A stretch of 64,000 nt of DNA. Origin: Candidatus Omnitrophota bacterium (GTDB taxonomy: Bacteria > Omnitrophota > Gorgyraeia > Duberdicusellales > 4484-171). The stretch is taken from the NCBI GenBank assembly GCA_043815445.1, contig JBDRIY010000058.1, positions 16,403 through 80,402 on the forward strand. The letters run 5' to 3'. A program made the translations under genes and the position numbers. The notes beneath the pieces are model-generated. The model was not told the DNA's origin. It made no database searches and saw only the letters and a list, made by a program, of their open reading frames with translations. Below are positions 1,269-44,407 of this stretch, in pieces (position 1 is the stretch's first letter; every line of letters begins with the position of its first letter).

Positions 1269-1642
1269 AATTCCCTTATAAAATCCACAAAGGAATTGCC
1301 TGCCCTATTATTCCTATAGAAATAAAAGGCCTCATAATAGATACTTACGTAGATTCCGGAGCTTTTTATTCTATTTTTTCCACTAAAGAAGCTGAAGCCT
1401 TGGGGATAGAATACCAAAAAGGTAAACCTGCCCCAGCGATTGTAGGAGATGGCGCCCAAATACCTGTTTTTTATCACAAACTCGCTATTAAAATTGGTAA
1501 TACCTCCCTTATCGCAACTATAGGATTTTCTCCACGCCTGGGAGTCGGTTTCAACCTCTTGGGAAGAAAAGATATATTCAACCGTTTTAAAGTCCTTTTC
1601 GACGACAAGCGCCAAGCCATAACTTTTATTCCTTACAAATAA
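1250..1642 (+). CDS. Retropepsin-like (clan AA) aspartic protease.
   Basis: The translation contains the hallmark I-D-T-Y-V-D-S-G-A-F (D-S/T-G-A active-site motif) followed by a hydrophobic flap region. It overlaps the preceding ORF by 19 nt in a different frame. The true start may be internal. Confidence 0.55.
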   Translation: MRSNSIKFPYKIHKGIACPIIPIEIKGLIIDTYVDSGAFYSIFSTKEAEALGIEYQKGKPAPAIVGDGAQIPVFYHKLAIKIGNTSLIATIGFSPRLGVGFNLLGRKDIFNRFKVLFDDKRQAITFIPYK

Positions 1643-1676
1643 AAATACCGGCGAGCTGGAATATTCCTTTATTGTC

Positions 1677-5947: not shown

Positions 5948-6190
5948 ATGTCTAATAAAATTACTTTGGAACTTAAGCCTTCCACTGTTGAAGAACTGGT
6001 AGAAATGATGCCCATTGAAGCTAAGATCCGGCTGGTGCGTAAATTGGAAAAAGAGACGTGGGGTAAACGTATAGACACATTGCTCAAAAGAATAGACCAG
6101 CGCCGCAAAAAATACCCTATTTCTCAAAAAGAGATTTCTAAAGAAATAGCTGAAGTGCGAAGACAAATCTATGGTAAAAGCAACAATTGA
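5948..6190 (+). CDS. Antitoxin-like small protein, paralog family subtype A (copy A1). It is the partner of the downstream PIN fragment.
   Basis: MSNKITLELKPSTVEELVEMMPIEAKIRLVRKLEKETWGKRIDTLLKRIDQRRKKYPISQKEISKEIAEVRRQIY. It has an RBS GGAGG and a TGA stop. It is paralogous to 14378-14629, 11093-11338 and 30191-30439. The 20-nt overlap with the downstream PIN ORF is typical of TA operons. Confidence 0.7.
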   Translation: MSNKITLELKPSTVEELVEMMPIEAKIRLVRKLEKETWGKRIDTLLKRIDQRRKKYPISQKEISKEIAEVRRQIYGKSNN

Positions 6191-6380
6191 TACAAATATC
6201 ATTGTTTCCGGACTAATTACCAGAGGAAATCCCCGCAAAATATGGCAAGCGTTTAAGGCCGGAAAATTTAGGGTTGCTTTATCATCGTTAATGTTTGAAG
6301 AGCTAATGGGTGTCTTAGCCAGGTCGAAATTCCATCCCATCATTACCGCTAAAGAATTCATCACACAATTAGAAAAATAA
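6171..6380 (+). pseudogene. PIN-domain toxin, N-terminal fragment only (69 aa, against 137-140 aa in the paralogs).
   Basis: MVKATIDTNIIVSGLITRGNPRKIWQAFKAGKFRVALSSLMFEELMGVLARSKFHP. This matches the first half of the PIN family seen at 14604 and 30411 (first acidic residue IDTNI), but stops at TAA 6378-6380. Confidence 0.5.
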
Positions 6381-10816: not shown

Positions 10817-11039
10817 AACCGATAGCAAAGCAAACTTTGACTTTCTCAACAAATTCCGCCCCCAATTGCCACCCCATCTTAAAAATAGTGAAAATAGGGA
10901 CACATCCCCTTTTTCGTTTACCACCGCGCTACTTGTCTTCGCGAGAGCCACAGGAAAAACAGAGGAATTTTGAATAAAGTGACGAAGCTGTACGAGGATT
11001 CTTGATTCTCGTAAAATAGAAACATCCCTACACAAATCC

Positions 11040-11068
11040 TTGACATGATTTTTAAGAAATGGTATAGA
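11040..11068 (+). promoter_or_regulatory. Sigma-70-type promoter TTGACA-17 nt-TATAGA for the subtype-B antitoxin.
   Basis: TTGACA 11040-11045, 17-nt spacer, TATAGA 11063-11068, RBS GGGGAGG 11081-11087. A nearly identical block is at 30102-30130. Confidence 0.5.
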
Positions 11069-11092
11069 TAAGCCGTCATAGGGGAGGTGTTT

Positions 11093-11338
11093 ATGACTAA
11101 AATTACGATTGATCTTAAACCAGAGCAAATCAAAGAAGCTTTTCAAAAACTTACTATTCAAGAAAAACTTCGCCTTACCCGAGAAGTTGAAAGGCTTACC
11201 CGGCGTTTCCGCTGGGATAGTCTCATTACTAAAGTCAGAGCCCGCGCTAAAAAATATCCCCTTGCCCAAAAAGAAATAAATCAAATATGTAAAGAAACTC
11301 GTAAAGAACTTTATGAAAAAAGAGCTAACTGCCGCTAA
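11093..11338 (+). CDS. Antitoxin-like small protein, subtype B (copy B1). It is an orphan: no PIN gene follows.
   Basis: MTKITIDLKPEQIKEAFQKLTIQEKLRLTREVERLTRRFRWDSLITKVRARAKKYPLAQKEINQICKETRKELYEKRANCR. It is about 85 percent identical by eye to 30191-30439. The track called the GTG at 11087. The ATG at 11093 is better placed relative to the RBS. Confidence 0.7.
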   Translation: MTKITIDLKPEQIKEAFQKLTIQEKLRLTREVERLTRRFRWDSLITKVRARAKKYPLAQKEINQICKETRKELYEKRANCR

Positions 11339-11462
11339 CAACCCAACGAGCTCGAGGTGGAAAAAAGAACCAGAAAAATTAGAAAAGTGCTTAATAAAAA
11401 ACTTATTCTTGACAAGATAGAACATTTTGTAGATAATAATAAAGCAAAATAAGGAGGAAATT

Positions 11463-11864
11463 ATGGAAGAAAAGAAAATTGCAAAGTTATTAGAAAAAAT
11501 GAATGGTAATATTATCGAGTTGAATAATAAATTTACTGGATTAGATAACAAGGTTACTGGATTAGAAGAAGGACAAAAAGAACTTAAGGCAGGCCAATTA
11601 AGAATAGAAACTAGGCTGGGGAAAGTTGAAATCAGGCTGAAAAAGGTTGAAGATAAATTAGAAGCTACTTTTGTCCGGACAGGCAAAAATTTCGAAGAAA
11701 TTACCCAAATTAAAACCCAGTTAGAAAGCCTTGAAATAATTAAAAAAGACATACTAACTATTAAACATACCCTTAGAAAAAAGGCTGATTTAGAAGAACT
11801 ACAATCCTTAGAAAACCGCATGGCAATAGCAGAAAGACGATTAGCAAAATTCATCCACCATTGA
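11463..11864 (+). CDS. Coiled-coil protein (133 aa), function unknown.
   Basis: RBS AAGGAGG at 11452-11458. The sequence is heptad-rich (LEKMNGNIIELNNKFTGLDNKVTGLEEGQKELKAGQLRIETRLGKVEIRLKKVEDKLE...). Confidence 0.55.
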   Translation: MEEKKIAKLLEKMNGNIIELNNKFTGLDNKVTGLEEGQKELKAGQLRIETRLGKVEIRLKKVEDKLEATFVRTGKNFEEITQIKTQLESLEIIKKDILTIKHTLRKKADLEELQSLENRMAIAERRLAKFIHH

Positions 11865-12055
11865 CCTATCACGGGTTTTTCACCTTGAGGCGCATCTTGG
11901 AATTTTGCTCTATCTTCCTTCCAAATATGAAAAGAAAAATACCAATCCCCCTCTTCAAAGCCCAGCTTTTTAAAAACAACATTATTTAAGCGCCTTTTAA
12001 ATTCTCCTTGATTTCTCAATAAAGATATGTTATCTTTTGTATGAGGTGAATTATA

Positions 12056-12277
12056 ATGACTAAACTGGTTTCCGCTATTTACGAGCATGGGAATCTTAGG
12101 CTTATTAAACCGCTGAAACTGTCTGAACACCAGAAGGTGCTTATTGCTATTGCTGTTAGCAACGATGAGATACCTTCTATGCTCATCAGCAAACTCGCTG
12201 AGAAGTCGAAAAGTTTCCATTTCTTGACCAACCCTGAAGAAGATATTTATTCCCCCTCTGACGGAGAAAAAGTCTAA
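12056..12277 (+). CDS. DUF104-type (AbrB/SpoVT-like fold) antitoxin.
   Basis: MTKLVSAIYEHGNLRLIKPLKLSEHQKVLIAIAV. This matches the 'AIYENGVLKPLEPLxLxEG' signature of the DUF104 antitoxin family. A MazF gene follows 5 nt downstream. Confidence 0.6.
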   Translation: MTKLVSAIYEHGNLRLIKPLKLSEHQKVLIAIAVSNDEIPSMLISKLAEKSKSFHFLTNPEEDIYSPSDGEKV

Positions 12278-12281
12278 CTTT

Positions 12282-12629
12282 ATGAGCCTTAAACGCGGGG
12301 ATATCGTTCTTGTGCCTTTTCCTTTTACAGACTTAACCAGCACAAAGGTTCGTCCGGCAGTTATTATTTCAGCTGACCCCCAAAAAGAAGATATAGTTAT
12401 AGCCTTTATTTCCTCAGTAATTTCCAAGCCTGCCGGTAACACAGAATTTTTACTTACTTTAACCAATCCGGATTTTGCCTCTACCGGCCTTAAAAAAGAC
12501 TCTATATTTAAAATGGGTAAAGTTCTTACTCTTTCAACCGTCCTCATCCTAAGGCGCCTTGGACGCATATCTGCCAACATCCAAAAAGAATTAGACAATC
12601 TGCTCAAGAAAGCGCTGGAACTCACATAA
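12282..12629 (+). CDS. mazF: MazF/PemK-family endoribonuclease toxin.
   Basis: MSLKRGDIVLVPFPFTDLTSTKVRPAVIIS... This is the canonical RGDIVLVDFPFTDxSxxKxRPALVLS N-terminus of PemK/MazF. Confidence 0.8.
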   Translation: MSLKRGDIVLVPFPFTDLTSTKVRPAVIISADPQKEDIVIAFISSVISKPAGNTEFLLTLTNPDFASTGLKKDSIFKMGKVLTLSTVLILRRLGRISANIQKELDNLLKKALELT

Positions 12630-12649
12630 TTTACTATTCCCTGATTTTC

Positions 12650-13480
12650 CTTAGAAAAATAATACTCTTTTTTCACCGGCAAATTGATAGGATTTTCTTT
12701 CGTTTGAACAGAGGCCTGAGCAATAGCGGGGTTATCTTGGTTTGTGCCAATGGGTGAGCTGGGAATACTCGATCCTAGATACTCGATGCTCGATGCTCGT
12801 AAAATAAAAACATCCTTTTTTCCTTGCGGCGGTGAGGCTCCGCTATGTCTGTATCTATCTTCATCTTCAAAAGCAAACTTTTCAAAAACAACATTATTCA
12901 AAAATCTCTCTGCCTTTCCCTCAACTAAACTTTGTTTTGATACAAGTATGCCGGAGCTAGATTTTGTTTTAGAATTAACCTCCACCTTGTCATTCCCTCT
13001 ACCCGGCTCCTGCATTATAATAGCCAATTTTGCGTTGTTGAATTCAAAGCCATAGACGCTGTCTGGATATGATACAAGGAACTCTTCTTTTTCTACTTTA
13101 ATCTTTTGTATATCTTTACCATCCTTATCAGCTAAATAAGCTGTGAATGAACCTTGCCGGCAAAGAGAAATTTCCATTCTACCCTTTCCGTCTTTTATAT
13201 GCTTATGAGCGCTTTCTTTTCCCTTGGCTGTTTTTATACCTACTCCTATACCAGCGCTCCTTGGCGTAATCATTGCCATTTTTGAAGGCGAATACATACT
13301 GGATCTATGAATTACAGCCATTAAATTGCCTTTATCATCTCTATCATACTCAGGATAAGCCTCCAACCCCTCAAACCCCTGAGCTATCTTATCGTATATT
13401 TCAAGAAGAACCGGAGAGCTGGAATGACTGCGGCCGGTTTGAGTTGAATCTTTACTCTTTAGATAGGCTTTCTTGACAAA
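12650..13480 (-). CDS. Hypothetical protein. Minus-strand coding is supported by T-rich plus-strand composition and a protein-like translation. The boundaries are approximate.
   Basis: Reverse-complement translation ...MAVIHRSSMYSPSKMAMITPRSAGIGVGIKTAKGKESAHKHIKDGKGRMEISLCRQGSFTAYLADKDGKDIQKIKVEKEEFLVSYPDSVYGFEFNNAKLAIIMQEPGRGNDKVEVNSK... The two plus-strand track ORFs here (12744-13055, 13273-13476) look like shadows. The ORF ends with a PxxxKKEYYFS tail like the one at 6393-6410. Confidence 0.3.
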
Positions 13481-13558
13481 ATTACCTATACGTGGTAATG
13501 TTATTTTTATAATAACCTTTGAATTATTGTAAACAATAAAAATAATATAGAGGTATAA

Positions 13559-13828
13559 GTGCGGTTTCAAAGATACGAATAGGATGATGCAAATATAGAG
13601 CATATTAGCAGTCATAAAGTCATCCCACAGGAAATAGAAGAAGCTAATTTCAACGAACCTCTTGTAATGAGAGTAAGGGGTAATAGATATATTGTTTATG
13701 GACGTAGTGATAGTGGACGTTATATTTTTATTGTGACTATTCATAAAGGACAAGGGGTTGTGCGCGCTATTGCCGCCCGTGATATGACACAAGCTGAGCG
13801 CAGGCTTTATAATAAAAAGCGAGGTTAA
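13559..13828 (+). pseudogene. brnT: BrnT-family (DUF497) toxin interrupted by an in-frame amber codon (TAG 13580-13582).
   Basis: The translation (GTG start) is VRFQRYE*DDANIEHISSHKVIPQEIEEANFNEPLVMRVRGNRYIVYGRSDSGRYIFIVTIHKGQGVVRAIAARDMTQAERRLYNKKRG. This resembles BrnT (xRFEWDxxK...HGVSFEEA...). The stop falls about where the conserved Trp is, consistent with TGG to TAG. BrnA follows 3 nt downstream. Confidence 0.55.
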
Positions 13829-13831
13829 TCT

Positions 13832-14110
13832 ATGCCCAAAAAGATCCCCAAATTCAGGAGTGAATCCGAGGAAGCTAACTTTTGGGCCACCCATGATAGT
13901 ACTCCATTCTTGAAAGATATGAAGGAAGTCTCCAATATCCGGTTTCCTAAACCAAAGCATAAATCGCTTATCCTTGACCTTGAACAACCATATATAGAAG
14001 CCATCAAAAAGATTGCTAAAAAGAAACATATCCCCTATCACAATCTTATAGAAAGATGGATTAAAGAAAAAGCCCTCCCTAAAATGGCCGCTTCTACTAA
14101 TCTCGAATAA
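13832..14110 (+). CDS. brnA: BrnA-family antitoxin (ribbon-helix-helix).
   Basis: MPKKIPKFRSESEEANFWATHDSTPFLKDMKEVSNIRFPKPKHKSLILDLEQPYIEAIKKIAKKKHIPYHNLIERWIKEKA matches the BrnA signature (IPxFxSExEExEFWxTHDSTDY...). Confidence 0.75.
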   Translation: MPKKIPKFRSESEEANFWATHDSTPFLKDMKEVSNIRFPKPKHKSLILDLEQPYIEAIKKIAKKKHIPYHNLIERWIKEKALPKMAASTNLE

Positions 14111-14323
14111 CTTTTTCGAAACCAATTTTACGGCAGACAAATATTGCGTATAATCAAACAAATAAAAATCATTGTTATTTTTAATACAACTACGAAATCC
14201 TTCAAAACTCATATTATTAATGGATGAACTGTTCTCGTGAGAAAAGGTGTCTGTCCCCTTTTTTAAATAATTATCTTGATTTTCATTAGATGTATCTCTT
14301 TTTTTACGTCCCCTAATCTCTCC

Positions 14324-14352
14324 TTGACTCAATAACACTTGTATGTTATAGT
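14324..14352 (+). promoter_or_regulatory. Sigma-70-type promoter TTGACT-17 nt-TATAGT for antitoxin copy A2.
   Basis: TTGACT 14324-14329, 17-nt spacer, TATAGT 14347-14352, RBS AAGGAG at 14366-14371. The ATG is at 14378. Confidence 0.5.
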
Positions 14353-14377
14353 TTTTTTGTATAAGAAAGGAGAAAGA

Positions 14378-14629
14378 ATGTCTAATAAAATCACTTTGGA
14401 ATTGAATCCTAATCAAGTAAAATCTTTGGTAGAAAAACTTTCTATTCAAGAAAAAATACGCCTTTTGAAAAAACTCGAACAAGAAACTTGGGCAAAAAGA
14501 ATAGATAACGTAACCACAAAAATAAAAAAGAAATTTAAACAATACCCTCTGCCCAATAAAGAAATTACCCGTATTTGTAAAGAAACCCGCCAAAAAATCT
14601 ATAATGAAAGAACTAAAAGTCGTCATTGA
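14378..14629 (+). CDS. Antitoxin-like small protein, subtype A (copy A2).
   Basis: MSNKITLELNPNQVKSLVEKLSIQEKIRLLKKLEQETWAKRIDNVTTKIKKKFKQYPLPNKEITRICKETRQKIYNERTKSRH. It overlaps the PIN start by 26 nt. Confidence 0.75.
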   Translation: MSNKITLELNPNQVKSLVEKLSIQEKIRLLKKLEQETWAKRIDNVTTKIKKKFKQYPLPNKEITRICKETRQKIYNERTKSRH

Positions 14630-15017
14630 TTCTAACATTTTAGTAAGCATACTAAAGGGAAGCGTTTCTCTGTCAATAATATATACCGCTTTTAAAGAAA
14701 ACTCATTTAAACTAATCATAAGCGCTGAAATTCTAAAAGAATTAGCGTCTGTTTTATACCGTCCCCACTTAAAAATTAATCCTTCTGATATAAAAGAACT
14801 CTTCAGATTAATAAAAAATAAATCTATTCGCGTAAAATTGCCCACGCCATTCATCAACGCTTGCCGTGACCCTAAAGATAATTTTATATTAGAACTAGCT
14901 ATAACCGCCCAAGCGAGATTTATTATAACCGGCGATAAAGATTTACTTACTCTTTCTCCATTTAAAGGAATCTCTATCCTATCCGCTAAAGAATTTATCG
15001 CTTTCTTAAAAAAATAA
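14604..15017 (+). CDS. PIN-domain ribonuclease toxin (137 aa).
   Basis: MKELKVVIDSNILVSILKG...ITGDKDLL. This has the PIN-family conserved acidic residues and is full length. It is a paralog of 30411-30833. Confidence 0.8.
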   Translation: MKELKVVIDSNILVSILKGSVSLSIIYTAFKENSFKLIISAEILKELASVLYRPHLKINPSDIKELFRLIKNKSIRVKLPTPFINACRDPKDNFILELAITAQARFIITGDKDLLTLSPFKGISILSAKEFIAFLKK

Positions 15018-19456: not shown

Positions 19457-19685
19457 TTCATTAAAGAAGCTGTTGTTAGAATCTGAAGGCGGCAAAGCCG
19501 GGCCGCTGCCGGAGATGTGGATTATAAAAATATATGGGGAGTTATTAAGATCTATCAGGCTGGATTTTGGGAAAACTAGAAACGTCTCCTTTTTTACCTC
19601 TCTTGCTTTTTTCAAGCTGAAATCAAGTTTATTGACACCTTCGCGGGAAAATGTTATATTTAAATTGTCCAAATAAGGAGGCTGT

Positions 19686-19913
19686 ATGTTAAGACATTTT
19701 AAAATAGTTATTGAAGAGGAGCCTTTAGGAGGCTTTTCCGTACATGTTCCATCGCTTTCTGGTTGTGCTACCCAAGGTGAAACACTAAAAGAAGCAATAT
19801 CTAACGCCGAAGAAGCTATCAAGCTGTATCTTTGGTCATTACAAGATGATGGTATTTCTATACCCAAATCTGATATGCGGGTAGTATTGAAAGATATCGA
19901 AGTATCTGTATGA
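19686..19913 (+). CDS. hicB: HicB-family antitoxin (UPF0150).
   Basis: MLRHFKIVIEEEPLGGFSVHVPSLSGCATQGETLKEAISNAEEAIKLYL is the typical HicB N-terminal RNase H-like fold signature. It overlaps the HicA start by 4 nt. Confidence 0.75.
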   Translation: MLRHFKIVIEEEPLGGFSVHVPSLSGCATQGETLKEAISNAEEAIKLYLWSLQDDGISIPKSDMRVVLKDIEVSV

Positions 19914-20143
19914 CGAAACTGCCCCAAACTTCCGGAAAAGAAGCTATCCGTGCTCTCCAAAAAGCTGATTTCTTCATCAAGCGTCAAAGCGGTTCCCATG
20001 TAATAATGAGGCATTCCACCGACCTCACCCGGCGCTGTATTGTCCCTGTCCACGGTTCTAGAACTATAAAACCCGGCACCCTCCACTCTATCCTCAAAGG
20101 CGCCGCCATCTCCATAGAAGAATTCATCAGCCTGCTTAAATAA
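19910..20143 (+). CDS. hicA: HicA-family mRNA interferase toxin.
   Basis: SGKEAIRALQKADFFIKRQSGSHVIMRH...IVPVHGSRTIKPGTLHSILKGAAISIEEF is the canonical HicA/YcfA motif. Confidence 0.8.
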   Translation: MTKLPQTSGKEAIRALQKADFFIKRQSGSHVIMRHSTDLTRRCIVPVHGSRTIKPGTLHSILKGAAISIEEFISLLK

Positions 20144-20191
20144 AAGAATTTCATAAACTTCGGGCGTCTTTTCCTTCAACAAATTCGCAAT

Positions 20192-23100
20192 ACTAACAAG
20201 ATGTTCTTCATAACCTCTCTCATTCTCTAAAAAGAAAACCACAGGCGAACTTCTTAATCCCTTTATGCGAGATAAGAGTTTATTATAAGGTTCTATAGGA
20301 TCATGCGGTACACATGAATCTGGAGAAAGGCCTTGCCTTAATGTTTCATCAGTTAAGGCATCCCGTATAATATTAAACACTTCTTCTAATAGTACCTTTA
20401 GGAGATCACTCTCAATAACGGCCTTAATCTTACTATCTCTAACCAACATAGCAACTTGAAATGAATTTTGAATATAGCTATATACCTCCCATGTAAATTC
20501 ATCGATTTGATTAGAATACTTAGTCAGTTCGCATGACTTATCGCCTTTCTGCATTGTAACCGTAACGCCATATTCTCTATTAAACATTGTAACTAAATCA
20601 TACAATACTCCTAAGGGCCTCATATGAAGGTCATATGCTAAGTCAACTTCCCCTGTATATAAATTATTATTAGTATTTTTCTTAGGTAAGAACTCAATAT
20701 CTTCTTTCTTCACCGCACTACTACCCCCCTCAAACCCCTCTATTTCCCCGTCTAAGATCTTAACTCCCTTTTTGGTGATTAAGATGGTTCTTTCCTCCCG
20801 GACGCCGGCTATTAGCAGTTCTATGGTTATTACCATTCCTGGCTTGATTTCTTCTACTTTCTCTAAAGAATACTGATGGCCGGCAAGGCCGGTGCCGTGG
20901 CCCCAGGCTAAGAAGGAGATGTAATATTTAAGGTAAGGGCTGTATTTGGGGCTTGTTTCTAACATTCGCAGGGCTTTTTCTTTAGCGAGGTTAACTTGGC
21001 TATAGGTAACTGTTCCTTGTTTTCTTATTCCTTCCTCTATCGCCTCATAGCAGACACTAAAAAGAAATACTGACATCTCCCGCATAGTTTTATATTTTTG
21101 ATAAAGAGGGTATTTTTTATCAGTAGGCAGAGGTATTTTTCCTACCCACCACGATTCACTGCGGTCATCATTAAATCCGTTCTTTTTAGCGCCCCAGTCT
21201 GTAACAACAATATCTCCGCTTAAGTCTATTTCTGTATCATCCGGCTCACTTTCTGTAATACTTCTTATTTCCTGGCCTATTCTTTCTACTTTCCTATAAT
21301 CCGCGGCAGACAATTCTACTGCTTTGCCTATTCGATTATAAGAGCCTGTAATTTTCTCTTTTTCATCAACCAAACTCATAATCCGCTCAATGTCAGCGCC
21401 GTTTAAGATAGTAACAGGAGACTCTCCGTCTTCAAAGCTTACGCATCCAGCGCCTTTAGCCGCGGCTAATTCCAAAGAAATATCTTTTATCTGACGTTTA
21501 GTTATTTTACTCCCGGGCTTTTTAGCCATATCTTCAACTATTTGCTGAGTCTTTTCTCCGGCTAATTTTCTTATATTCCCAACCTCTTCTATGCCTTTAA
21601 TTGTTTCTTGAGAGTTAACAACATCTTCTTCTTGCTTTTCAACAGATTCAGCTTTGTGCCTACCCCCAAACTCCTCCTGATACAAACGCTTAGCTTGATT
21701 TTGGAGGCTTCCTCCGGAAATTACTGTGTAACGCTGATAAATACGCCGGGTCATTGTTTTAATTGACATTCGACTCAAGCCGCGCCAACCCCACCAGCCC
21801 CTAAAAGGAGTAATTGCTGTTCCCATCATTGGAGATAACAGCCGCTCATAAAGGTTCTTGGACTGCCTTATGTTTTTATCTTTCTTAGCCAAACGCTTAA
21901 CCCAGGCTATACCAAAAACCTGAGCTGCTACTTCATTAAAATCATGGCCAGCCCCAATAGATAAGCTATTAACTCCTAATCTTTTAGCCAAGCAATCCAA
22001 AATAATATGGAAGTTCTCGTGAGGAGTATCAAACTGAACTAAAGTCTCGTCATCTATGCGATAAAACTTCTCGCCTTGATAATCCTCATTAACCCTGCGG
22101 CCGTCTTTATCTAAAGCTAAATGGTCGCGATAGCCGATATTAGCCGCGGAAATATAAATAATATATTTCCCCTCTTTCTCGCTGTATTCTACCTGCTCGC
22201 GGCCGTTATCCCATATTTCCGGCATAAGCCCGGGTAGAACAATTTCTACCCGGAATTTCATTTCATCTAATAAATCCTCTAATTTAACATTTTGGCTGCG
22301 GGCTTTTTGAGCAAGCTGGCCTAACATCCGCGGAACTAACAAATAATGTTTATTATCTTTATCAGCTATTTTCTTATCAGTGTATTGTTCACTTTCTTGC
22401 ATTACCTCCCCTAAAAACTCATAAACATCTTCCTTGCTTTTTAAGCTACTCTTAATACCCTCTAATTGCTTAAAAATATATCCCTCTAACTTTTGCTTTA
22501 TTTCCTTATTAAGCCAAGCTTGAGGATTTATAGACATAAGCAAAGACCCTATAGTTTGCTGAGCCCGGGCCGCAATCATCCGCGGCCTGTCTTTTAACTT
22601 TTTCCAAGAAGGATCATCTTTATTAACTGTCTGGCGCATAGAAATACTCTTAACGGTTTGGTCAAAAAGAGGCAGAATTTTATTTTTAAGTTTATCTACC
22701 ACAGCCTCAATTTCTTCTATTTTTACCTCACACTGTTGAGGTGTTGCCCAATCCTGCCAAACATCATCTGTTTTCAAAGCTTCAGCTTTATCAATCATTT
22801 CTTCTATTAAATAGCGGTAGGCGTCCATTTTAATCATAAAATCATCGCCATAAACAGCCTCAATATCAAACATCCTCTGCTTTAAACAAGCTAAAAGCGA
22901 AGAAATCTTATACTCAGGAACAAGGTGTTCCTGTTCTAAAGGAGTAACCTCATAAGAAATTTCTCCCTTATCAAGTTGTTTAATCCGCGCCTCCATTCGT
23001 AAACCTATTGGCTCAGCCTCGTTGTTATCCCCAGAACTATAAGCATTCTCAAAAAAGTCCGTATGCGCGACTTTTTTAGAAGCATACCTTTTCTTAGCCT

Positions 23101-26100
23101 CTTTAAATAATTTCTTCTTCTCTTTTTTGCTTAACATTTTAGCCTGAGGCTGGCTTATAGGCTTTTCCCGGCCAAAATTAATTCGCGGGTATTTTAAAAG
23201 ATATCCTTTAGTATATATATAAGGTAAGGAAGTTAAATTCATCTTCTTAGCTTTTTTGCCGTTACGCCGCTCATATTCAACGCTGACAATATAGTCAAAA
23301 ATGCCAAAACGCCGCTTCTTCCTAAAAGTAAGCTTGCGGTCGTCACAAGGCAAAGGAACTTCAAAAGTATTGCCTTGTTTAAAATCTATTTTTATCTGCT
23401 TACCTTCCGGAGTCATCATCCAGAGATTATGCTCTTTATCATAATAAATATCAGCCAGCCGGCTTTGTTCTTTTTTCTCATTTTTCTGCTTTTCAGTATC
23501 AGCTACCATCCAATATTTTATCGGGCTGATCTTTTGAACTGCTTGCGCCGACTGCATAGCGATATTAATAGAAACCCTTTTTCCGGAAACTACTTCAGGA
23601 AAATCCTCAGGAGAAAGCCTTTCTAAATGAGCAATAAACCATTCCGGATCTAAACAATCATCAAATCCGCCCTGTTTCTCTGACCTATTTCCCAAAAATT
23701 CAAATTCTTTCATTGCGCTTACCTGGCGTTTTAAATTTAAAACTGTCTGGCGCCAATGCTCAATACTTTGATTTCCCGTGCCTAAATTCAATAAATTAAT
23801 ACCTTTACGCTGACTGGCTATCTGACTAACAGCATTATCCTGATCAAAAATATACTCTAACTGCCTCAGCATATTTTCAATTAAAGTAACTAAAACCTTA
23901 GCCGGCCTTTCTTTACCGCAGGCAGTAAAAATAGCCGACATCACCTCATTTTGTTTTTCTAAAGCCTGTTTAATTTCCTGAATTTTATCTAAATCTTTTC
24001 CCTTGAGCTCCCATTGCCTGATGATTGCGTTTAAAATATTAACCGGCCGGTTCCATACTGAAAAATTCAACTCGCTCCAGTTATTATTCTGACTCAACCG
24101 CTTTTGGCGATATTGAGCGTTGTTAATTATCTCATCTATGGTAGTAGGAATTATTTTTTCCTCGCCAAAACCTTCACCAGTAAGAATCAGCTTGCTAATT
24201 CTCCTTAAATTACGAAGGCGGTGAAGTGCCTGTTTTAAATCTCTGGTAGGAGTATATTTGTTGAATAAAAACACTGCTTCAATTCCCTCCTGGCCTAACA
24301 TTGTCTGGTCTGTTCCGCTATTTGCTCCCCGAGAGTCATAAGCTAAAACCCGCTGGCCTTGGCTTAAGCGCTTAAGAATCTGTTCCTGGGCTTCTGTTTC
24401 CGGAGACCTGGCTTTCTTAAAGAACCAACCGCTATAAGGCTTGATTAATTTTGGACTGCCAACTAATTCTTCTCTTTCTACCTTCTGACAAGTAACAACT
24501 CCTTGGGGCTCAAAAGTATAAAGCCAGCCATCATCAATAATCTTGGCTAAAACTTTCTTAGTATATAAAACATCATCTTGTTTTTTCCTTCCTGGCCGGC
24601 CGTCAATAATTACTTTAGCTTCTCCCAGTTCATAGCTTAAATACTCCAAACTGTCTAAAGCTGTGATTGGCTTGCCTGCTAACATTTCTCTTAAATCCTG
24701 ATTTTCACCCTGAAGTTCAATGTTAAACTGTTTTTTCCGGAATTCTAATTCTTCCTCTACTACATTAAGAGAAAGTAAAATCAGCTTGCGGGCCTGCTGG
24801 CTGTAATACTGAAGAACCTGGGTAGAAGCAACACTATCAGTGCTTTTCAAACTAGAAGGAATCTTAGCGATAATAGCGTAACCTAAAGAATAAACTACGC
24901 TGACAAAGCCCCTTCTAAACCTGCTCCAATCCTTACAAGAATAATTCAGAGCTCTCATAGATGTAATTAACTCTGAAGATAAAGCATGCTTATAACTTTT
25001 AGATACTACGTTATTTCCGGTTCCGTCATTAAGCCTTAACTCAAAATCTCTTTTCTTATTGTCTAAGGTATATCCTTGATAATGGCTGTTTTGATAAACA
25101 TAAACTTTCAGGGCAATAAGAAAATCAGCTAATTTTTTCTGCTGTTTTTCGTCAAAAATACTTAGTAACTGCTGGCTGAAAATATTTTTTTCTCTGGCCG
25201 CGGCTGTCTCCAGCTCATCAGCCCGAGAATGAGGCTGAGCTCCAAACCGGCTGGAATGAATCTTGAAAAAATCCCAGGCAAAATCAATAATTACTCCTCG
25301 GGGAATTTCTAAATTAGAGACATTTCCCTCAGCTTTATCTAAAGCGTCTTCAATCCATTTTTTATCCATTTGAGAATGAATATACCAGAGCATTTTATAC
25401 ATCTTATACCCTTCAATAGACGAAGAGCCTTTTACTTTAGCTTTCCACCAAAGGTTATACCAAGGAGTCTTGCGCCCGGTAGCTAAAGGAGGCGCGGATA
25501 TAGCGTCGGTTCCTTCATCCCAAATAAGCAAAGCTGGAAGCGTATCAATATTTCCGCAAACAGCATCAAAACACTGGCGCAGTTCATCCTGGTCAAGAAT
25601 CTTCAAACCGCTTATCTGAGGAAAAGCGGTTATAAGCCGGATAAACTTCTGTTTAGCCACATTATCCTTAACCACAACCCCCATATCTGAAGGAGCCAAT
25701 CCTGCCCGAGCGCTAATCCAATCCGCCATTAACACCGAAGTTGTAGATTTTCCAATCCCTCCTTCAGCAATAAGCGTCTGGATATTGGCCCTGCCGCTAT
25801 CTATAGCCGCGAATAAATTCTCATAAAATTCCTCTTGTTTTTTAGTATTATCGGCCTTACGCCGGGAAATCAACCCCATCTGCGCGGCCCGGCTCACTCG
25901 TCTGCTTGCTTCTTCACCAAATTCTTCCTTGCTAAAATCAGGAGGGATATTGTGAGAGGCCTTGAAGTTATTGAGAAAAGATTGCGAAGAACTGTTAAAA
26001 CTATAACTATTTAAAAAGCCGCGGCAAATAACTAAAATAACTATTATAAAAACAGTAAGCCAAAATATCTGGTCAAATAACCCTAACCCCCCTGGCGGCC

Positions 26101-29100
26101 CCTGCTTCAGGTTTGCCCCAATCCCAGCTCTGAGAAGCCTTTGTAGGGAAAAAAGGATATTGCTATTAGCGGCGGTAATTCCCCAGGGGATAAGTAAGGC
26201 TCCGTGAAGTTTGCTTTTTTGAAAATTCTTAGGACAAATTGGTTCTATCCTCTTAAGTTCTACCTCCGCCTTAACAGCATATAATATTGAGTCAGGTATG
26301 TTATGCCTTTTCGTTATGCGATCAGCTTCCGCCATAACTGCCTCTAATAACTTTCCTTTATTACCATCAGAATCTTGTGAGGCTATGGCAGTATTGCATT
26401 GAGCCTCTATCCTCACTAAGTCTTCCTTTATTGCGTCTATTTGCTCCAATAAGCGTTGAATTTGCTTATATTCATTCTTACATAAAGTATTATTTAAAAT
26501 ATCAAGGGCTTTACTCCATAGCCCATTTTTTAAATACTGCTCGGCTAACTTTATCCTTAAAATAACAATACTGCCTTTGCCCTGTTTTAAATCTCTTTCA
26601 ACCCTTGTTCTTTTTCTTGTTTTAGGCTGGCTAGCGCTGGGATTAACACTTCCTGTTTTCTTCATTAGCCCATCAAGAATCTCCTTAGCTTTATCTAAAC
26701 TTTCATTACTTTGTTTTTTTAAATATTGCTCAACTTGTTCTATTGTTTTTTCTAAATGCTGGATTTTTTCAATAAAAGAGCCTTCACCTCCGCAAGTTCT
26801 AACAAACTCCTTATCCCAGTTTTTTAATAAACATTTTAACTTTTCTGCTTGTTGTGATAAAATTTTAAACTGCGGGTCAATTTCTTGTTTTTCTTTATTT
26901 TGGTTTAGATATTGTAGAATAATATTATTAGCTTTCTCTACATTACCTTTATACAAATAATCTTTAACTCTCTTGGCATCACCTGCCCTAATACGTAATT
27001 TATTAAATTCCGGATTATCCATATCGCCTAATAGCTCAAGAACTTGAGTATAATTACCTTTTAAATATTCTATTTTTGCTTTTTTATAGTTTGTGATATC
27101 GTTTTGAATATGCCGCATTTCTCGAGGTATTTTTCCTTGAAATTTATTATTTAATATAGTAAGAACTGAATCAATCTTACCTCGAGTATAGTCTTCTAAC
27201 ATTTGCTTAATACTTTTATCCAAACTGTTTGCTTCCTTAATTATTTCATTAACTATAGCTCTTAATTTCGTAAATTCATACAAACAAGGAGATAATTTAT
27301 CTAAGAAATTTTCTGCTAATTGCTTTGCTTCCTTATAATTGCCTTTTGTCAAATTATCTTCCGCGCTCACAAGACTTACCCATAAACTCTCTGTTTCTAT
27401 ATTGCCGGCTTTAGCTAACTCTCTTAGGAATAAGATCTCATCATCCCTATCCATGTGAACCACTAGCTCCAATAAAGCATACCCCATTTCACTAATCTGT
27501 CCCGCCTGCCTAAAACCGCTTATATCCTCATCACCACAGAAAATTAGCTTAACCTTGTTTTTAACCCTGTTGTATATCACATCATCACCCCAATATCTTA
27601 AAATCTTCATAGCTGTCTTTTGCGCCTTTTCCAAAACAACAGCATTTACCTTCTTATCTTCCCCAAAAATACCCTCCCTTAAGACAATATCAACCATAAA
27701 AAAAGCCATTTCCTTTTTGAATTTCGTGTTATTATACCGGGACGCGTCAATGAATCCCTTTACCAAATCTAAAACATAAACTTCCTCCTCAGCCAAAGCT
27801 AAAAAAGCTAAGAAAGAGATTCTCTCTTTATCTTTTATTCTTTGAGAACCTATTATTTTAAGAATCCAAACAAAATAATCCATTCGGTAAAAATCAACTG
27901 TTTCCCCATCAAATTCTTGCTCCAACCGCGAAGCTTTCTCAAAATATTTCACGCTTTCCCTGCCCTTGCCTGTTGAAAACAGGTAAAGAGCTTGAAGGCA
28001 GTTATATTCTATTAAGAACATCTTTTTATGATAACTATCCTCATCACTATTCCCCGAAGTATAATCTTTCTTTGACTTAGAAAACGGAATACGGAGAAAG
28101 CTTTGTTTTTGCGGTATTTGGATATTACAACTTGCTTCCTTATGTAAAGTTTCTAACTCATCAATGGTAGTTTGAATATCCGCGTTATTACTTTCCCCAT
28201 CAAATATCCGCGTAAAGGTAAACTGCAGCCTCACTATAGCAATTATGTACTTATTACTTTTTACTTCCGGCCGCCCAATTGATTCTTGGTAACACCTATG
28301 AGCACCACTATGCTTACCAAGAAACCCATACAAATACATTTTTTTTATCCAAAGAAAACTTCCATCCCAAAACTTTAAAGTGTAATCGCAAACCTTGATT
28401 ATTTCGTTTACCATTTCTGAATTAATTTGAATTATATACATGTAGGCATCAACCAGCTTATTACTAATCATATAAATAGTTTTCTTATGCTGATTAAGCT
28501 CTTTCTCAATATACCCCTCTTCTTCTGATTTTAAACTTTCTATGAATTTACAGGATAGAGCTTCTATCAATTTTTTCTCATCTTGTTCAAGGCGGCCTCT
28601 TAACTGTATATCTATATCCTCTACTTTCGCGCGCTGTTTTAGCTGATAAGACAATGACAGCAAAAAAGAAATTCTAAAATCATAGGCTTTTTCAAAAAAT
28701 GCTATGGATTTAGAAAAATCAAGTATTTGAAAATAATAATCACCCATAAATAAATTCATGGAAACAATCCCATTAAATATTTTTAAAAATAAATCATAAT
28801 CCCCCTGCCAAATACTCTTTTGTTTCCTATCCATCAGGCTCAATATTCTCTCGCGAGCCTCCTCTAACATATACGGAAAATCTTCAGCTAACCATGCCTG
28901 CGCCCGCAAAGAAAGTTTGTCAAACCTATCTAAATTTAAAAGAAGCTCATCGATTACCACAATAAACTCTTCAATAGCTTGTTCTCTTTTCCTTATAATA
29001 TCTTTATTCTTTAAAACTACCCCTTTTGCAAAATCAAAACGCTTAACATTCTTATAAAACTTCTCTTTATACGCCTCCGCTTCCTCATTAGCCAACGCCT

Positions 29101-30100
29101 TCTCCTCAGCGTAACCGCTCCCACTATTTATTATAGCCAACATAGCCAAAAACGCCGCGCCCAGCAAAACCATCCCCCACAACCCCTCTAGCCCTCCCTT
29201 TTCCAACGTCTGCAGCAAATCCTTTAATCCTCGCGCCGAAGCAGGAAACGCAAAAAACAACACTCCCAATCCAACAAAGACCAACACCACCCCCGCGAAT
29301 TTCAACCAATGGTTTTCAGTTTTTAGGCTGTGGGCTTTCCACACTGTCCAGACCAACCATGTTGCTAAGATAAAAACTAACATTATTAAGAAAGGCTGAG
29401 CGATTTCGAGAAAAACAGAAAATCCTGTGGGAATAACTGCGATTGAAGATTTTTCTTTTAAGCAATTATCTTTAATAAGTTGCGGATTCTTTAATTTTCC
29501 TATGCGGGAAAGTAAATTATTGTAATGTTTTGTAATACTTTTAACAGATTCTCCCCAAGGATCAACCCCATTTTTTAATACTATATCTGTTAAAGCATCA
29601 TGAAAAATATTAAAGGCCTCTTTTAACTTCCATTGCGAAACATTACCTTCAAGAACAACTTCAACCTCAGTTTTACTATGAAGAATTATCGCAACCAGGT
29701 TCTGCTGAATCTCAAACACTTGTGTATGCCAAGATAAACATTCGCCCAAAATACATGACCTGCCATCTTTCTCTATCTTAACCGTAACCCCACACTCTTC
29801 TTTAAGCTTCTTAGCTAAATTGAACAATACTCCTGAAGGCCTTTCATGTAACCGATAACCCAACTTTACCTTTTCTCTATAAACATTCTCTTTCTTCAAG
29901 CCGCCATTTGTTATAGTCGATACAGCCAAAACCAAACCCATAAATAAAATAATCCCTAACAGCCCTTCTAAGCTTTTTCCTTCCGGCGCCAGCAGTAGAC
30001 ACTTTAACCCCCACGCCGAGACAGAAGACACAGAGAGCAAGATTCCTAAGCAGATAAAGGATAATATTATGCCAGCGGGTTTTAGGTAAAACTTCCTATC
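20192..30100 (-). CDS. Giant protein (~3300 aa). It has N-terminal TM helices, a TPR-like helical repeat region, a P-loop NTPase (Walker A GGIGKST, Walker B LLIWDEGTD) and a C-terminal M24-peptidase-like (creatinase/prolidase fold) domain. The N-terminal ~230 aa resemble its own C-terminal ~100 aa, which I treat as a module-boundary domain.
   Basis: The phase-2 stop (TAG) is at 20194-20192. Phase 2 was verified open at 21601-21660, 23041-23100, 25741-25800 and 27001-27060. The Walker A is encoded at ~25755-25785. GHGTGLAGHQ...PGMVITIE (M24 metal-ligand motifs) is at ~20830-20900. An internal ATG is at 29383. The frame continues upstream without an ATG to ~30100, so the start is approximate. 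Confidence 0.5.
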
Positions 30101-30101
30101 C

Positions 30102-30130
30102 TTGACACGCTTTTTAAGAAATGGTATAGT
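30102..30130 (+). promoter_or_regulatory. Sigma-70-type promoter TTGACA-17 nt-TATAGT for antitoxin copy B2. It is near-identical to 11040-11068.
   Basis: TTGACA 30102-30107, TATAGT 30125-30130, RBS AAAGGAGG 30173-30180. Confidence 0.5.
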
Positions 30131-30190
30131 TGAGTTGATGAATCTTGTTAGAAATATAATTTTTAACAGGGCAAAAAGGAGGCGTTTAAT

Positions 30191-30439
30191 ATGGCTAAAA
30201 TTACTATTGACCTTAAACCAAAACAGATAGAAGAAGCTTTTCAAAAACTTTCTATTCAAGAAAAACTTCGCCTTACTAGGGAGTTTGAAAGACTTACCCG
30301 GCGTTTCCGATGGGATAGTCTTATTACTAAAGTCAGAACCCGCGCTAAAAAATACCCCCTTCCCCAAAAAGAAATAAACCGAATATGCAAAGAAACTCGT
30401 AAAGAACTTTATGAAAGAAGAACTAATCGCAGTAATTGA
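30191..30439 (+). CDS. Antitoxin-like small protein, subtype B (copy B2).
   Basis: MAKITIDLKPKQIEEAFQKLSIQEKLRLTREFERLTRRFRWDSLITKVRTRAKKYPLPQKEINRICKETRKELYERRTNRSN. It overlaps the PIN start by 29 nt. Confidence 0.75.
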   Translation: MAKITIDLKPKQIEEAFQKLSIQEKLRLTREFERLTRRFRWDSLITKVRTRAKKYPLPQKEINRICKETRKELYERRTNRSN

Positions 30440-30833
30440 TACTAATATATTTACCAGCATATTAATTGCTAAAAGTAGTACCTTTTCTAAAATATTTGAA
30501 GCTTTTGTCGACGGCGTATTCACTCCTGTTTTATCTCTGCCTTTATATTCTGAAATTATAGAAGTTATCCAACGTGAGAAATTTAAAAAATACTTTGAAA
30601 AAGAAAATATTACTAAATTAAAAGAATTGCTTAAAAATGACGCGATTTTTGTTACTCCTTCTTTAAAAATTGACCTCTGCCGAGACCCCGCAGACAACAT
30701 AATCTTAGAAACCGCCATAACCGCTAAAGCTAATATTATCGTAACCGGCGATAAAGACCTGCTAACTATAAAAACCATCCACAAAATCCCTATTATCACC
30801 CCAAAAGAATTTTTAAAATACCTAAAGAAATAA
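30411..30833 (+). CDS. PIN-domain ribonuclease toxin (140 aa).
   Basis: MKEELIAVIDTNIFTSILIAKSS...LCRDPADNIILETAITAKANIIVTGDKDLL is full length. It is a paralog of 14604-15017. Confidence 0.8.
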   Translation: MKEELIAVIDTNIFTSILIAKSSTFSKIFEAFVDGVFTPVLSLPLYSEIIEVIQREKFKKYFEKENITKLKELLKNDAIFVTPSLKIDLCRDPADNIILETAITAKANIIVTGDKDLLTIKTIHKIPIITPKEFLKYLKK

Positions 30834-43795: not shown

Positions 43796-44029
43796 ATGGA
43801 TAATAAAATAATAGAAAAAATTGAAGACATTGAAGATAGAATTGAAAGTATTAAATGGCTGATTAACGCGCGTTCTTTTGCCGATAAATCTCATATTTCT
43901 GCCACCATTAACATAATAAGAGAAAGCGGAGGAATTTTGAATAAAAATTGCCTCAAAGGAACTACTTTCGAAAATAGAATCCGCCGAGCATGGAAAACTA
44001 ACTTCTCCAAAAGGACAAAATACTCCTGA
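43796..44029 (+). CDS. Putative VapB-like antitoxin (77 aa), upstream partner of the PIN toxin.
   Basis: ORF with its stop 3 nt before the vapC start. MDNKIIEKIEDIEDRIESIKWLINARSFADKSH... I recognise no specific family. The assignment is by position. Confidence 0.45.
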   Translation: MDNKIIEKIEDIEDRIESIKWLINARSFADKSHISATINIIRESGGILNKNCLKGTTFENRIRRAWKTNFSKRTKYS

Positions 44030-44032
44030 TTT

Positions 44033-44407
44033 ATGCGTTATCTTATAGATACGAATATTATTATCGACCACTTGCGTGGAGATAAAAGTGTTACTTCCTT
44101 TTTGGAAAAGATAGAGAATAAAAAATCTCAAGCGAGTATATCTGTTATCACTGAATACGAACTTCTTATTTATCCTCCGCTTACTTCCCAGCAAGAAAAA
44201 GAAATTATTTCTTTTATAAATATTTTTGCTGTCCTTAATATTACCTCTTCCATTGTTAGAATCGCTGTTCGTTTTAGAAAAAAGTATAATACTGATATAA
44301 TAGATTCCCTTATCGCCGCTACAGCTCATAAAAATAAATCCATCCTTATCACCCGCAATATTAAACATTTTAAGAATATCAAAGAAATCCAAATTGAAAC
44401 CATTTAG
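44033..44407 (+). CDS. vapC: VapC-type PIN-domain toxin.
   Basis: MRYLIDTNIIIDHLRGDKS...IIDSLIAATAHKNKSILITRNIKHF has the classic VapC PIN acidic residues (D6, E, D, D). It ends with TAG at 44405-44407. Confidence 0.75.
   Translation: MRYLIDTNIIIDHLRGDKSVTSFLEKIENKKSQASISVITEYELLIYPPLTSQQEKEIISFINIFAVLNITSSIVRIAVRFRKKYNTDIIDSLIAATAHKNKSILITRNIKHFKNIKEIQIETI

Follow-up and report, generated by a model that had tools for sequence, protein, structure and literature searches.

Giant genes of the Omnitrophota have been described as multi-enzyme or 'Archaeovorin' giants (West-Roberts et al., 2023, bioRxiv 10.1101/2023.11.21.568195; Nielsen and Lui, 2026, bioRxiv 10.64898/2026.06.07.730766), and GT5 (PF08323), radical SAM (PF04055), methyltransferase (PF08241), GNAT (PF00583) and HD domains are typical of them (Nielsen and Lui, 2026). 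A divergent SecA_DEAD domain is found in most, not all, giants of this type, C39/S8 peptidase domains were suggested as possible cleavers of giant proteins (West-Roberts et al., 2023), and the published proteomics on the translation of giant ORFs is inconclusive. The locus analyzed here resembles the giants of both papers in being an ORF of tens of kilobases with about one transmembrane (TM) segment per several hundred residues. It also shares with them the mosaic of GT5 starch-synthase, radical SAM, methyltransferase, GNAT, HD, glycosyl hydrolase and peptidase domains, the internal repeats that have diverged at the DNA level, the extreme sequence isolation and the mostly unannotated sequence, and all five of the typical domains named above are present in its frame. 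It differs from them in that the window, by which we mean the whole stretch of 64,000 nucleotides that was analyzed, gave no Pfam match to SecA_DEAD, C39, HEAT or dockerin. HPr-fold domains, M24 and toxin–antitoxin (TA) cassettes nested in antisense are unmentioned in the two papers.

The open minus-strand frame and the block within it

Frame 0 of the minus strand contains no stop codon in 64,000 bases (21,333 codons) and leaves the window at both ends, compared with 878–2,438 stops in each of the other five frames. It is the preferred frame in each 1.5-kb block of the window, which is uniform in composition, codon usage and GC skew, and with at least 21,333 codons it is, like the Omnitrophota-type giants, a single ORF of >10,000 aa. 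An alternative genetic code behind missing ORFs was considered and could be ruled out, since the standard code already leaves the frame open. Rfam and tRNA scans of the window gave no match, and marker genes, tRNAs and rRNAs are absent from it. Protein and alignment scans of genome, metagenome and viral collections, and a scan of these for an exact 40-mer from the window, gave no match. Homolog searches found no relatives of the giant protein: a slice of 3,300 aa had no homologs, the N-terminal 2,100 aa matched one ordinary protein, and a search with the HD domain returned only normal-sized HD-GYP proteins, the nearest of which are spread over many phyla. All TM calls are crude hydropathy predictions; there are 39 hydropathy peaks in the giant frame, several of which lie within spacer that is antisense to TA cassettes and may be artefacts. 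Part of what is taken for 'TM helices' or 'dark matter' in giant proteins may likewise be antisense spacer.

We consider it probable that the region of interest is part of a giant gene which spans at least 64 kb and is multi-enzyme and membrane-threaded as described in the Omnitrophota, and that it forms a block of 3,318 codons in this gene (Table 1). The block would be delimited by two autonomous TA cassettes that lie in frame on the opposite strand, and not by start and stop codons; the block lacks both a start and a stop of its own, and the plus strand across it carries no nested genes. An earlier note on this DNA had taken it for a self-contained ORF of 9.9 kb, a description that has to be given up: there is no stop at 20192 and no start near 30100, minus frame 0 is unbroken, and these two limits are the edges of plus-strand TA cassettes within the open frame. 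The observation that an ATG-less N-terminus abuts a TA cassette holds, and PIN_3 of that cassette reaches 69.8 bits.

Table 1. Positions of the features in the 64-kb window (cassettes numbered c1 to c9; aa, residues of the window frame)
Feature	Position	Strand	Remarks
Stop-free frame, 21,333 codons	1..64000	-	Pfam domains: GH57-type AmyA, GT5, GH13, HD-GYP, two radical SAM, M24, methyltransferase, GNAT
c1	1017..1642	+	DUF5678 (24.7 bits) + retropepsin-like aspartyl protease (25.9 bits)
c2	5948..6380	+	Antitoxin-like ORF + truncated PIN_3 (36.4 bits)
Cassette cluster c3–c6	11036..15017	+	
c3	in 11036..15017	+	Antitoxin paralog of c8 (88% DNA identity) + coiled-coil ORF
c4	in 11036..15017	+	AF2212-like (32.7 bits) + MazF/PemK (48 bits)
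c5	in 11036..15017	+	BrnT (34.7 bits) + CopG/BrnA (68.2 bits)
c6	in 11036..15017	+	Antitoxin-like ORF + PIN_3 (77.4 bits)
c7	19632..20143	+	HicB antitoxin 19686-19913 (45.6 bits), HicA toxin 19910-20143 (65.3 bits)
Coding block, 3,318 codons (aa 11301-14619)	20144..30097	-	Between two antisense TA cassettes
Predicted HPr-fold domain, copy 3 (aa 14446-14588)	20237..20662	-	C-terminal 'boundary' domain of the earlier note; homology to copy 2
M24 metallopeptidase (pita-bread) domain (aa 14253-14410)	20771..21241	-	Pfam PF00557
Unannotated, ~1,380 aa	21242..25390	-	No match in Pfam, NCBIfam, PADLOC, PDB
Probable P-loop NTPase core	25391..25810	-	Walker A AEGGIGKST (25742-25768), Walker B LLIWDEG (25511-25531)
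Single TM-like segment (aa 12644-12662)	26012..26068	-	Hydropathy; precedes P-loop domain
Unannotated, ~990 aa	26080..29050	-	'TPR-like' region of the earlier note; TPR not significant
TM module copy, three hydrophobic segments (aa 11526, 11567, 11605)	29051..29467	-	Hydropathy
Predicted HPr-fold domain, copy 2 (aa 11372-11509)	29474..29884	-	N-terminal 'boundary' domain of the earlier note; Y-x2-H-x-R-P
Two hydrophobic TM-like segments (aa 11308-11326, 11345-11363)	29909..30076	-	Part of repeated TM module
c8	30098..30833	+	82-aa antitoxin-like ORF 30191-30439, PIN_3 toxin 30411-30833 (69.8 bits)
c9	43796..44407	+	Antitoxin-like ORF + PIN toxin (63.1 bits)
Predicted HPr-fold domain, copy 1 (aa 5483-5611)	47168..47551	-	Outside the block, at no block edge

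Toxin–antitoxin cassettes and the stop codons of the host frame

At least nine TA cassettes lie on the plus strand of the window, antisense inside the open minus frame. They resemble the known type II systems (VapBC/PIN, HicAB, MazEF, BrnTA) in having two small overlapping or adjacent genes, promoters of their own and TA Pfam families; Pfam domains were found in genes of eight of the nine, and c3 carries a paralog of the antitoxin of c8, with 88% identity at the DNA level. Strong promoters precede several cassettes, such as the one at 19632-19660 of c7 (TTGACA-17-TATATT) and the sigma-70-like one at 30102-30130 of c8 (TTGACA-17-TATAGT), each with 11/12 matches and a TG, and c8 also has the Shine–Dalgarno sequence AAGGAGG. 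This cassette spans exactly 251 codons between two repeated elements of the giant protein. The lower edge of c9 lies ~130 nt above a boundary placed at 43669 in the earlier note. An exact look-up found none of the TA proteins on record, because gene callers skip genes that are antisense within a long ORF, and annotation pipelines thus hide nested genes within giant ORFs.

What separates the cassettes from known type II systems is their position in antisense within a host ORF and a codon choice that spares this ORF its stops, an arrangement that is not described in the literature searched. Inteins are selfish in-frame insertions in host genes, and the cassettes are like them in that an insertion is tolerated in an essential coding frame since the frame is kept; unlike inteins, they are encoded on the strand opposite to the host gene, and there is no sign of their being excised from RNA or protein. 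Within the cassettes, the giant frame contains 0 stops where ~110 are expected (P ~3e-50), whereas 131 and 188 were counted in the two other frames of the antisense strand. The TA genes that are codon-aligned with the giant frame use TTA, CTA or TCA in 0 of 991 codons, whereas the offset genes do so in 62 of 759. As only translation 'sees' stop codons, this avoidance is evolutionary evidence for read-through translation, and from the stop avoidance only we infer that ribosomes translate through the cassettes, which would make the giant ORF one polypeptide or a polyprotein. The host frame would then read through the cassettes as a compositionally odd spacer peptide: the phenylalanine content of the cassette spacer is 13.4%, compared with 5.2% elsewhere, and the dN/dS of the duplicated antitoxin is 0.15 in the plus frame and 0.40 in the giant frame, the latter being equal to the control (0.41). 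The stop avoidance in the cassettes bears on the question of whether ultra-small bacteria really translate their giant ORFs as predicted, and the same simple stop count can be applied to any other giant gene.

The continuity of the frame would be without functional significance if the block were a separate gene of ~9.9 kb, one of several large minus-strand genes that are split by plus-strand TA cassettes. The block edges do coincide with cassette edges, two blocks open with a TM module right next to a cassette, where an N-terminal anchor would be expected, and the giant-frame peptide across a cassette shows no protein-level constraint; however, no block ends in a stop codon, none is headed by a Shine–Dalgarno sequence with a start codon, all blocks are in one frame, and the highly significant stop avoidance is limited to the phase in which the giant frame runs on, so that we regard separate genes as improbable. 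The stop-free frame could also be an artefact of an assembly error or of a non-natural (edited or generated) sequence. The sequence and the small proteins indeed have no match in the public collections searched, and the pattern is without precedent in the literature searched, but a misassembly is unable to strip the stops from a single frame, and the uniformity of composition, codon usage and GC skew, the natural promoters, Shine–Dalgarno sites and overlapping toxin and antitoxin genes of the cassettes, and the natural substitution patterns of the paralogs together make such an origin very improbable.

A sub-case of the giant-gene explanation is a polyprotein in which the whole frame is translated and then cut to block-sized proteins, the cassette spacers being discarded. 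This would agree with the abnormal composition and missing constraint of the spacers, and with the suggested cleavage of giant proteins by C39/S8 peptidase domains (West-Roberts et al., 2023). Nevertheless, there is no C39- or S8-type protease domain in the window, a recurring cleavage motif was not identified at the block edges, and this variant thus appears unlikely.

Architecture of the block

Within the giant gene that we favor, the block would begin with two TM segments, followed by an HPr-fold domain, three further TM segments, ~990 unannotated residues, one TM segment, the probable P-loop NTPase, ~1,380 unannotated residues, the M24 domain and a second HPr-fold domain. The TM module is present in four copies in the window. 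HPr copy 2 and the P-loop lie an even number of TM segments (four) apart, so that M24, the P-loop and the HPr-like domains may all face the cytoplasm. TPR-like repeats, which had been assigned to the ~990-residue stretch, found no support: the best Pfam match had an E of 0.094 (below threshold), internal repeats were not detected, the motif enrichment had a P of 0.12, and the stretch had no match in any other library scanned. Scans of the unannotated stretches of the block against NCBIfam, PADLOC and PDB gave nothing usable.

The motifs from which an NTPase and an M24 peptidase had been proposed, GGIGKSTTS (aa 12746, window position 25762) and LLIWDEG (aa 12823) for the former, and GHGTGLAGHQ (aa 14366) and PGMVITIE (aa 14386) for the latter, occur once each and in the same frame. 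A frame break between the two parts, which had been named as a refutation, was looked for, and none is present. The distance of Walker A from the N-terminus assumed at that time has to be corrected from ~1200 aa to 1,444 aa.

Judged from its sequence, the block probably contains a P-loop NTPase. The Walker A and B motifs are 77 aa apart, which is the canonical spacing, and an equivalent pair arises in 1.3% of shuffles. The motif pair thus speaks for the proposed NTPase, as does, weakly, a match to AAA_22 (15 bits, under the cutoff of 27). As to its class (AAA/STAND, SIMIBI, SF2/SecA or KAP), a match to ParA-type PF-32 had an E of 0.83, there was no PADLOC match to the region, and a single-sequence AF2 model of it (pLDDT 39) was set aside. 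A SecA-type motor, suggested by a motif resemblance, was not supported for the P-loop: BLASTP against E. coli SecA was not significant, and the motif windows had z values of 0.6 and 0.0. The Pfam SecA search found nothing at E ≤ 10, and a weak collinear alignment to SecA motif III/NBD2 (z ~3), which is the one signal above noise in the ~1,380-residue stretch, is not significant.

The M24 domain with its intact metal ligands is confirmed at the sequence level, by the HMM scan that the earlier note had asked for (PF00557, 35.8 bits, gathering threshold 23) and by the alignment of all five ligands (D, D, H, E, E) to MetAP/prolidase chains. It shares the GHGxG and xITIE motifs and the five ligands with M24 metallopeptidases such as methionine aminopeptidase and Xaa-Pro dipeptidase, but differs from the M24 families in that only profile positions 66-208 are aligned and that an insertion lies ahead of the first Asp. 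NCBIfam equivalog scores were far under their cutoffs, and unlike the free enzymes, the domain is internal to a giant protein.

A duplicated domain with a predicted HPr-type fold

The earlier note had further described a duplicated 'boundary' domain at the two ends of the block. The homology is real (34% identity over 146 aa, E = 2e-19, between aa 11372-11509 and aa 14446-14588), so the self-similarity whose absence had been named as a refutation is present, and DALTD...YNxLLSRIxxL is found in both copies; the lengths, however, are ~140 aa each, and not 230 and 100 aa. A profile search with the domain found one protein among 1.84 billion representatives, a stand-alone protein of 588 aa (P0003). 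DUF6933 was dismissed as the identity of the domain, as just one of the copies matched it and the score of 24.9 bits fell short of the cutoff (27).

A model based on an alignment of four sequences predicts that the domain has a divergent HPr-type fold. Each of two methods ranked HPr proteins first, at almost full coverage and with the lowest rmsd, and the predicted fold is the beta-alpha-beta-beta-alpha-beta-alpha open-faced sandwich of HPr, in which helix 1 begins at residue 21 and has a His as its N-cap, with an Arg at +2. H20, R22 and P23 are invariant in 4/4 aligned sequences, and copy 2 has the invariant Y-x2-H-x-R-P and a C-terminal helical extension that bears YNxLLSRI. On the sequence level, Pfam PTS-HPr gave nothing even at E ≤ 10, the PDB profile search found no HPr, and hhalign against E. 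coli HPr was weak (E = 0.035). The PROSITE His signature of the HPr family (PF00381) is G-[LIVM]-H-[STA]-R-[PA], and its Gly and [STA] positions are unmatched in the domain; membership of the HPr sequence family was thus not detected.

The domain is like the HPr/PTS phosphocarriers in its predicted sandwich, in the N-capping His of helix 1 and the Arg (+2) and Pro (+3) behind it, and in a core of ~85-100 residues. It is unlike HPr in lacking the Gly before and the small residue after the His, in the Ser46 site and its region, which are not conserved, in the extra C-terminal helical extension of ~45 aa, and in being embedded with three copies in a giant membrane protein. HPr domains are also known as fusions in multidomain proteins (FruB/FPr, DhaM, MTP). 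Unlike in the PTS, an EI or EIIA partner was not found in the window; a PEP-utilising/EI domain was not found there either, and the gene extends past both ends of the window. We regard it as somewhat unlikely that, instead of a phosphocarrier, the domain is a generic module of the alpha/beta type (KH-like or ferredoxin-like) with a structural or binding role: the ranking of HPr proteins by both methods speaks against it, as do the invariant H-x-R-P at the position of the HPr active site, and a weak match (E = 0.055) of P0003 to PEP-utilisers_N, the Enzyme I N-domain that binds HPr.

If the HPr-type prediction holds, the HPr-like domains could serve the enzyme modules as phospho-histidine carriers or docking stations, coupling or regulating them, and their conserved His would be the first concrete biochemical handle on such coupling or regulation in a protein of this kind. 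We give about an even chance to a broader proposal, according to which TA cassettes colonise the antisense strand of the giant gene as insertions that are in frame and free of stops, with a codon usage that is shaped to keep the host frame open, translation runs through the entire ORF of at least 64 kb, the cassettes are a previously unseen class of nested genes that standard callers miss, and the three orphan HPr-fold copies with their intact H-x-R-P form an internal phospho-relay or docking system.

The proposed role of the domain as the end of one module and the start of the following one, throughout a family of giant genes, could not be maintained, as there are just three copies in 21,333 aa and most blocks have none. 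A role at junctions is also at odds with the predicted globular HPr-type fold and with the location of copy 1, which is internal and ~920 aa away from the closest cassette; the real delimiters are the antisense TA cassettes.

A giant reading frame with two new aspects

The block (3,318 codons, aa 11301–14619 of minus-strand frame 0) belongs to a type of giant gene already described and adds two novel features to it: a predicted orphan HPr-fold domain in three copies, and antisense toxin–antitoxin (TA) cassettes that appear, from their sequences, to be co-adapted to the host frame. The observation made in the earlier note was partly confirmed and its interpretation partly supported. Length, transmembrane (TM) density and poor conservation match the Omnitrophota multi-enzyme or ‘Archaeovorin’ giants, as does the Pfam repertoire of GT5, radical SAM, MTase, GNAT, HD and glycosyl hydrolase domains, and our searches found no relatives of any part of the giant; the sequence itself did not occur in the genome, metagenome and viral collections that were searched. 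HPr-like and M24 domains, which occur in the block, and opposite-strand nested genes, which occur in the window, are mentioned in neither giant-gene paper (West-Roberts et al., 2023, bioRxiv 10.1101/2023.11.21.568195; Nielsen and Lui, 2026, bioRxiv 10.64898/2026.06.07.730766).

It was believed that the block is a self-contained 9.9 kb ORF, but it has neither a stop codon at 20192 nor a start codon near 30100. Frame 0 is free of stops over 21,333 codons, and thus in all 64,000 bases of the window (878–2,438 in the five other frames), and a leave-one-out codon model prefers it in every 1.5-kb block. The supposed ORF is therefore a slice of a much larger frame, and a Shine–Dalgarno sequence with a start codon was found at none of the block heads. 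An ORF listing with the bacterial code gave at most 140 aa as the largest ORF between 15 and 45 kb, because ORFs running off the window are left out. The motifs GGIGKSTTS, LLIWDEG, GHGTGLAGHQ and PGMVITIE were correctly read, each occurring once and all in one frame.

Antisense cassettes and the open frame

What delimits the block are antisense TA cassettes. The positions given in the earlier note (20192, 30100, 30860 and 43669) lie at or near the edges of three of them. The adjoining TA cassette that had been recognized (c8) indeed encodes a PIN_3 protein (69.8 bits), whose gene follows an overlapping ORF for an 82-aa antitoxin-like protein, an AAGGAGG Shine–Dalgarno sequence and an 11/12 sigma-70 promoter, and the other block edge adjoins a HicB/HicA pair (c7) with an equally strong promoter. 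The window has at least nine plus-strand cassettes, which all run antisense to the open frame. Eight of these nine have Pfam matches to TA-type domains; c3, which has no such match, is a paralog of the c8 antitoxin (88% DNA identity). Their contents are PIN (four times), MazF with an AF2212-like antitoxin, BrnT/BrnA, HicAB, and DUF5678 with a retropepsin-like protease. The c8 cassette comprises exactly 251 codons and lies between two elements repeated elsewhere in the giant protein. A full-text literature search gave no description of long ORFs with TA cassettes nested on their antisense strand, and exact look-up found no record of the TA proteins, as would be expected if gene callers suppress genes that overlap a longer ORF.

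Within the cassettes (1,762 codons), frame 0 contains 0 stops, and the other two antisense frames contain 131 and 188. In TA genes codon-aligned with the giant frame, TTA, CTA and TCA are absent from 991 codons, versus 62 in 759 codons of offset genes (Fisher P = 7e-24). Stop-forming codon junctions number 0 in offset and 38 in aligned genes (P = 5e-10). Altogether, about 110 giant-frame stops were expected within the TA genes and none was seen (P ~3e-50). That the frame stays open through the cassettes is thus a maintained feature rather than an accident, and the simplest reading would be that ribosomes pass through them and that selection acts against premature termination. In a recently duplicated antitoxin, dN/dS is 0.15 in the plus frame, 0.40 in the giant frame and 0.41 in a control frame (0.36–0.58 in genuine giant-protein repeats); purifying selection therefore acts on the plus frame, and the giant frame behaves like the control. 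The giant-frame peptide across the cassettes is rich in Phe and Ser and poor in Glu, as expected of antisense translation, and some hydropathy ‘TM helices’ are located in these spacers.

The four TA-type cassettes c3–c6 lie within 4 kb, separated by only 64–318 codons of giant-frame sequence, a pattern resembling a hotspot for insertions into the giant ORF. The c8 promoter and antitoxin are duplicated at c3 (88–94% DNA identity), which has no PIN toxin; the ORF after it encodes a 133-aa coiled-coil protein. In this antitoxin family, all four paralogs are in one and the same phase with respect to the giant frame. The DUF5678/retropepsin-like aspartyl protease pair is nested antisense like the TA cassettes and is not a classical TA family.

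Coordinates of features in the window
Feature	Window position	Strand
DUF5678/retropepsin-like pair	1017–1642	+
c3–c6 cluster	11036–15017	+
c3 copy of c8 promoter and antitoxin	11036–11328	+
Coiled-coil ORF after c3	11463–11861	+
c7 (HicB/HicA)	19632–20143	+
Block	20144–30097	−
c8 (PIN_3)	30098–30833	+
c8 promoter and antitoxin	30098–30426	+
PIN_3 ORF	30411–30833	+
c9 (PIN)	43796–44407	+
Three-helix TM module, four copies	29051–29467, 29810–30214, 36362–36844, 43307–43780	−
~390-aa repeat family	34644–35767, 41667–42565, 43119–43450, 44769–46030	−
Two radical SAM domains inside the giant frame, CxxxCxxC motifs (aa 7523, 10044)	41078–41443, 33398–33877	−
HD-GYP domain	47986–48529	−
Glycogen/starch-type enzyme block: GH57 AmyA middle and C domains, GT5 starch synthase, GH13 alpha-amylase	57800–63270	−

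Enzyme domains and topology

The proposed M24 peptidase fold was confirmed as the sole block domain above its curated threshold (35.8 bits, cutoff 23), and alignment to prolidase and MetAP chains placed all five metal ligands, namely two Asp in VTDWG...NDDRS, His in GHGTG, and Glu in ITIE and REE. For the P-loop NTPase, the motifs are present, and AAA_22 is the sole profile match and a weak one (15 bits, E = 0.03). For a protein of this length, Walker A by itself is at the level of chance (2 observed versus 1.4 expected), and Walker A and B at canonical spacing occur in 1.3% of shuffles, on which basis we regard the region as a probable NTPase of no assigned class. A resemblance to SecA motifs did not hold up when tested. 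The postulated TPR-like repeats were unsupported, and some 2,400 aa in the block have no match in Pfam, NCBIfam, PADLOC or PDB.

Crude hydropathy analysis of the block gives two TM segments, HPr copy 2, three TM segments, one further segment and the P-loop, which puts four TM segments between HPr copy 2 and the P-loop; the ~2,000 aa that extend from the P-loop to HPr copy 3 and include M24 have none. This crude topology is consistent with a shared side, presumably the cytoplasmic one, for all domains that depend on nucleotides or phosphate. Two copies of a recurring three-helix TM module lie directly downstream of c8 and c9, and a second TM element, ‘xPPLV’, recurs upstream of both, which points to membrane-linker regions as sites where insertions are tolerated. 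A ~390-aa repeat family of no assigned function occurs at least three times (at most 56% protein and 70–78% DNA identity, dN/dS 0.36–0.58). The glycogen/starch-type block has a sole database relative, P0001 (1,187 aa), encoded in a GlgC–GlgA–debranching operon of a MAG (L001).

The predicted HPr-fold domain

The self-similarity noticed earlier was borne out (residues 11372–11509 versus 14446–14588, 34% identity, E = 2e-19), and an iterative HMM found three copies and no more in the window, of which the third is at aa 5483–5611. Searched against 1.84 billion representative proteins, the three-copy profile had a single match, P0003 (E = 1.8e-18), a 588-aa protein that carries the domain in the middle. 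Its ATG has a stop codon shortly before it, which shows that P0003 truly stands alone. It follows that the domain is an autonomous, very rare globular unit, and not one that closes and opens modules across a gene family. As sequence-level tests detected no HPr family membership, we call its fold HPr-type and its predicted active-site geometry HPr-like, according to a model built on a thin alignment, and do not place the domain in the HPr sequence family. It may have a phosphocarrier or docking role.

P0003 (L003, 34–1800), the only external protein with this domain, weakly matches the HPr-binding N-domain of PTS Enzyme I in its C-terminal part (PEP-utilisers_N, E = 0.055). An HD-GYP domain (HD_5, 91 bits) precedes HPr-fold copy 1 by about 150 aa, and a single hydrophobic segment separates the two. 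The closest relatives of the HD-GYP domain come from many phyla and are ordinary signalling proteins of the c-di-GMP phosphodiesterase type.
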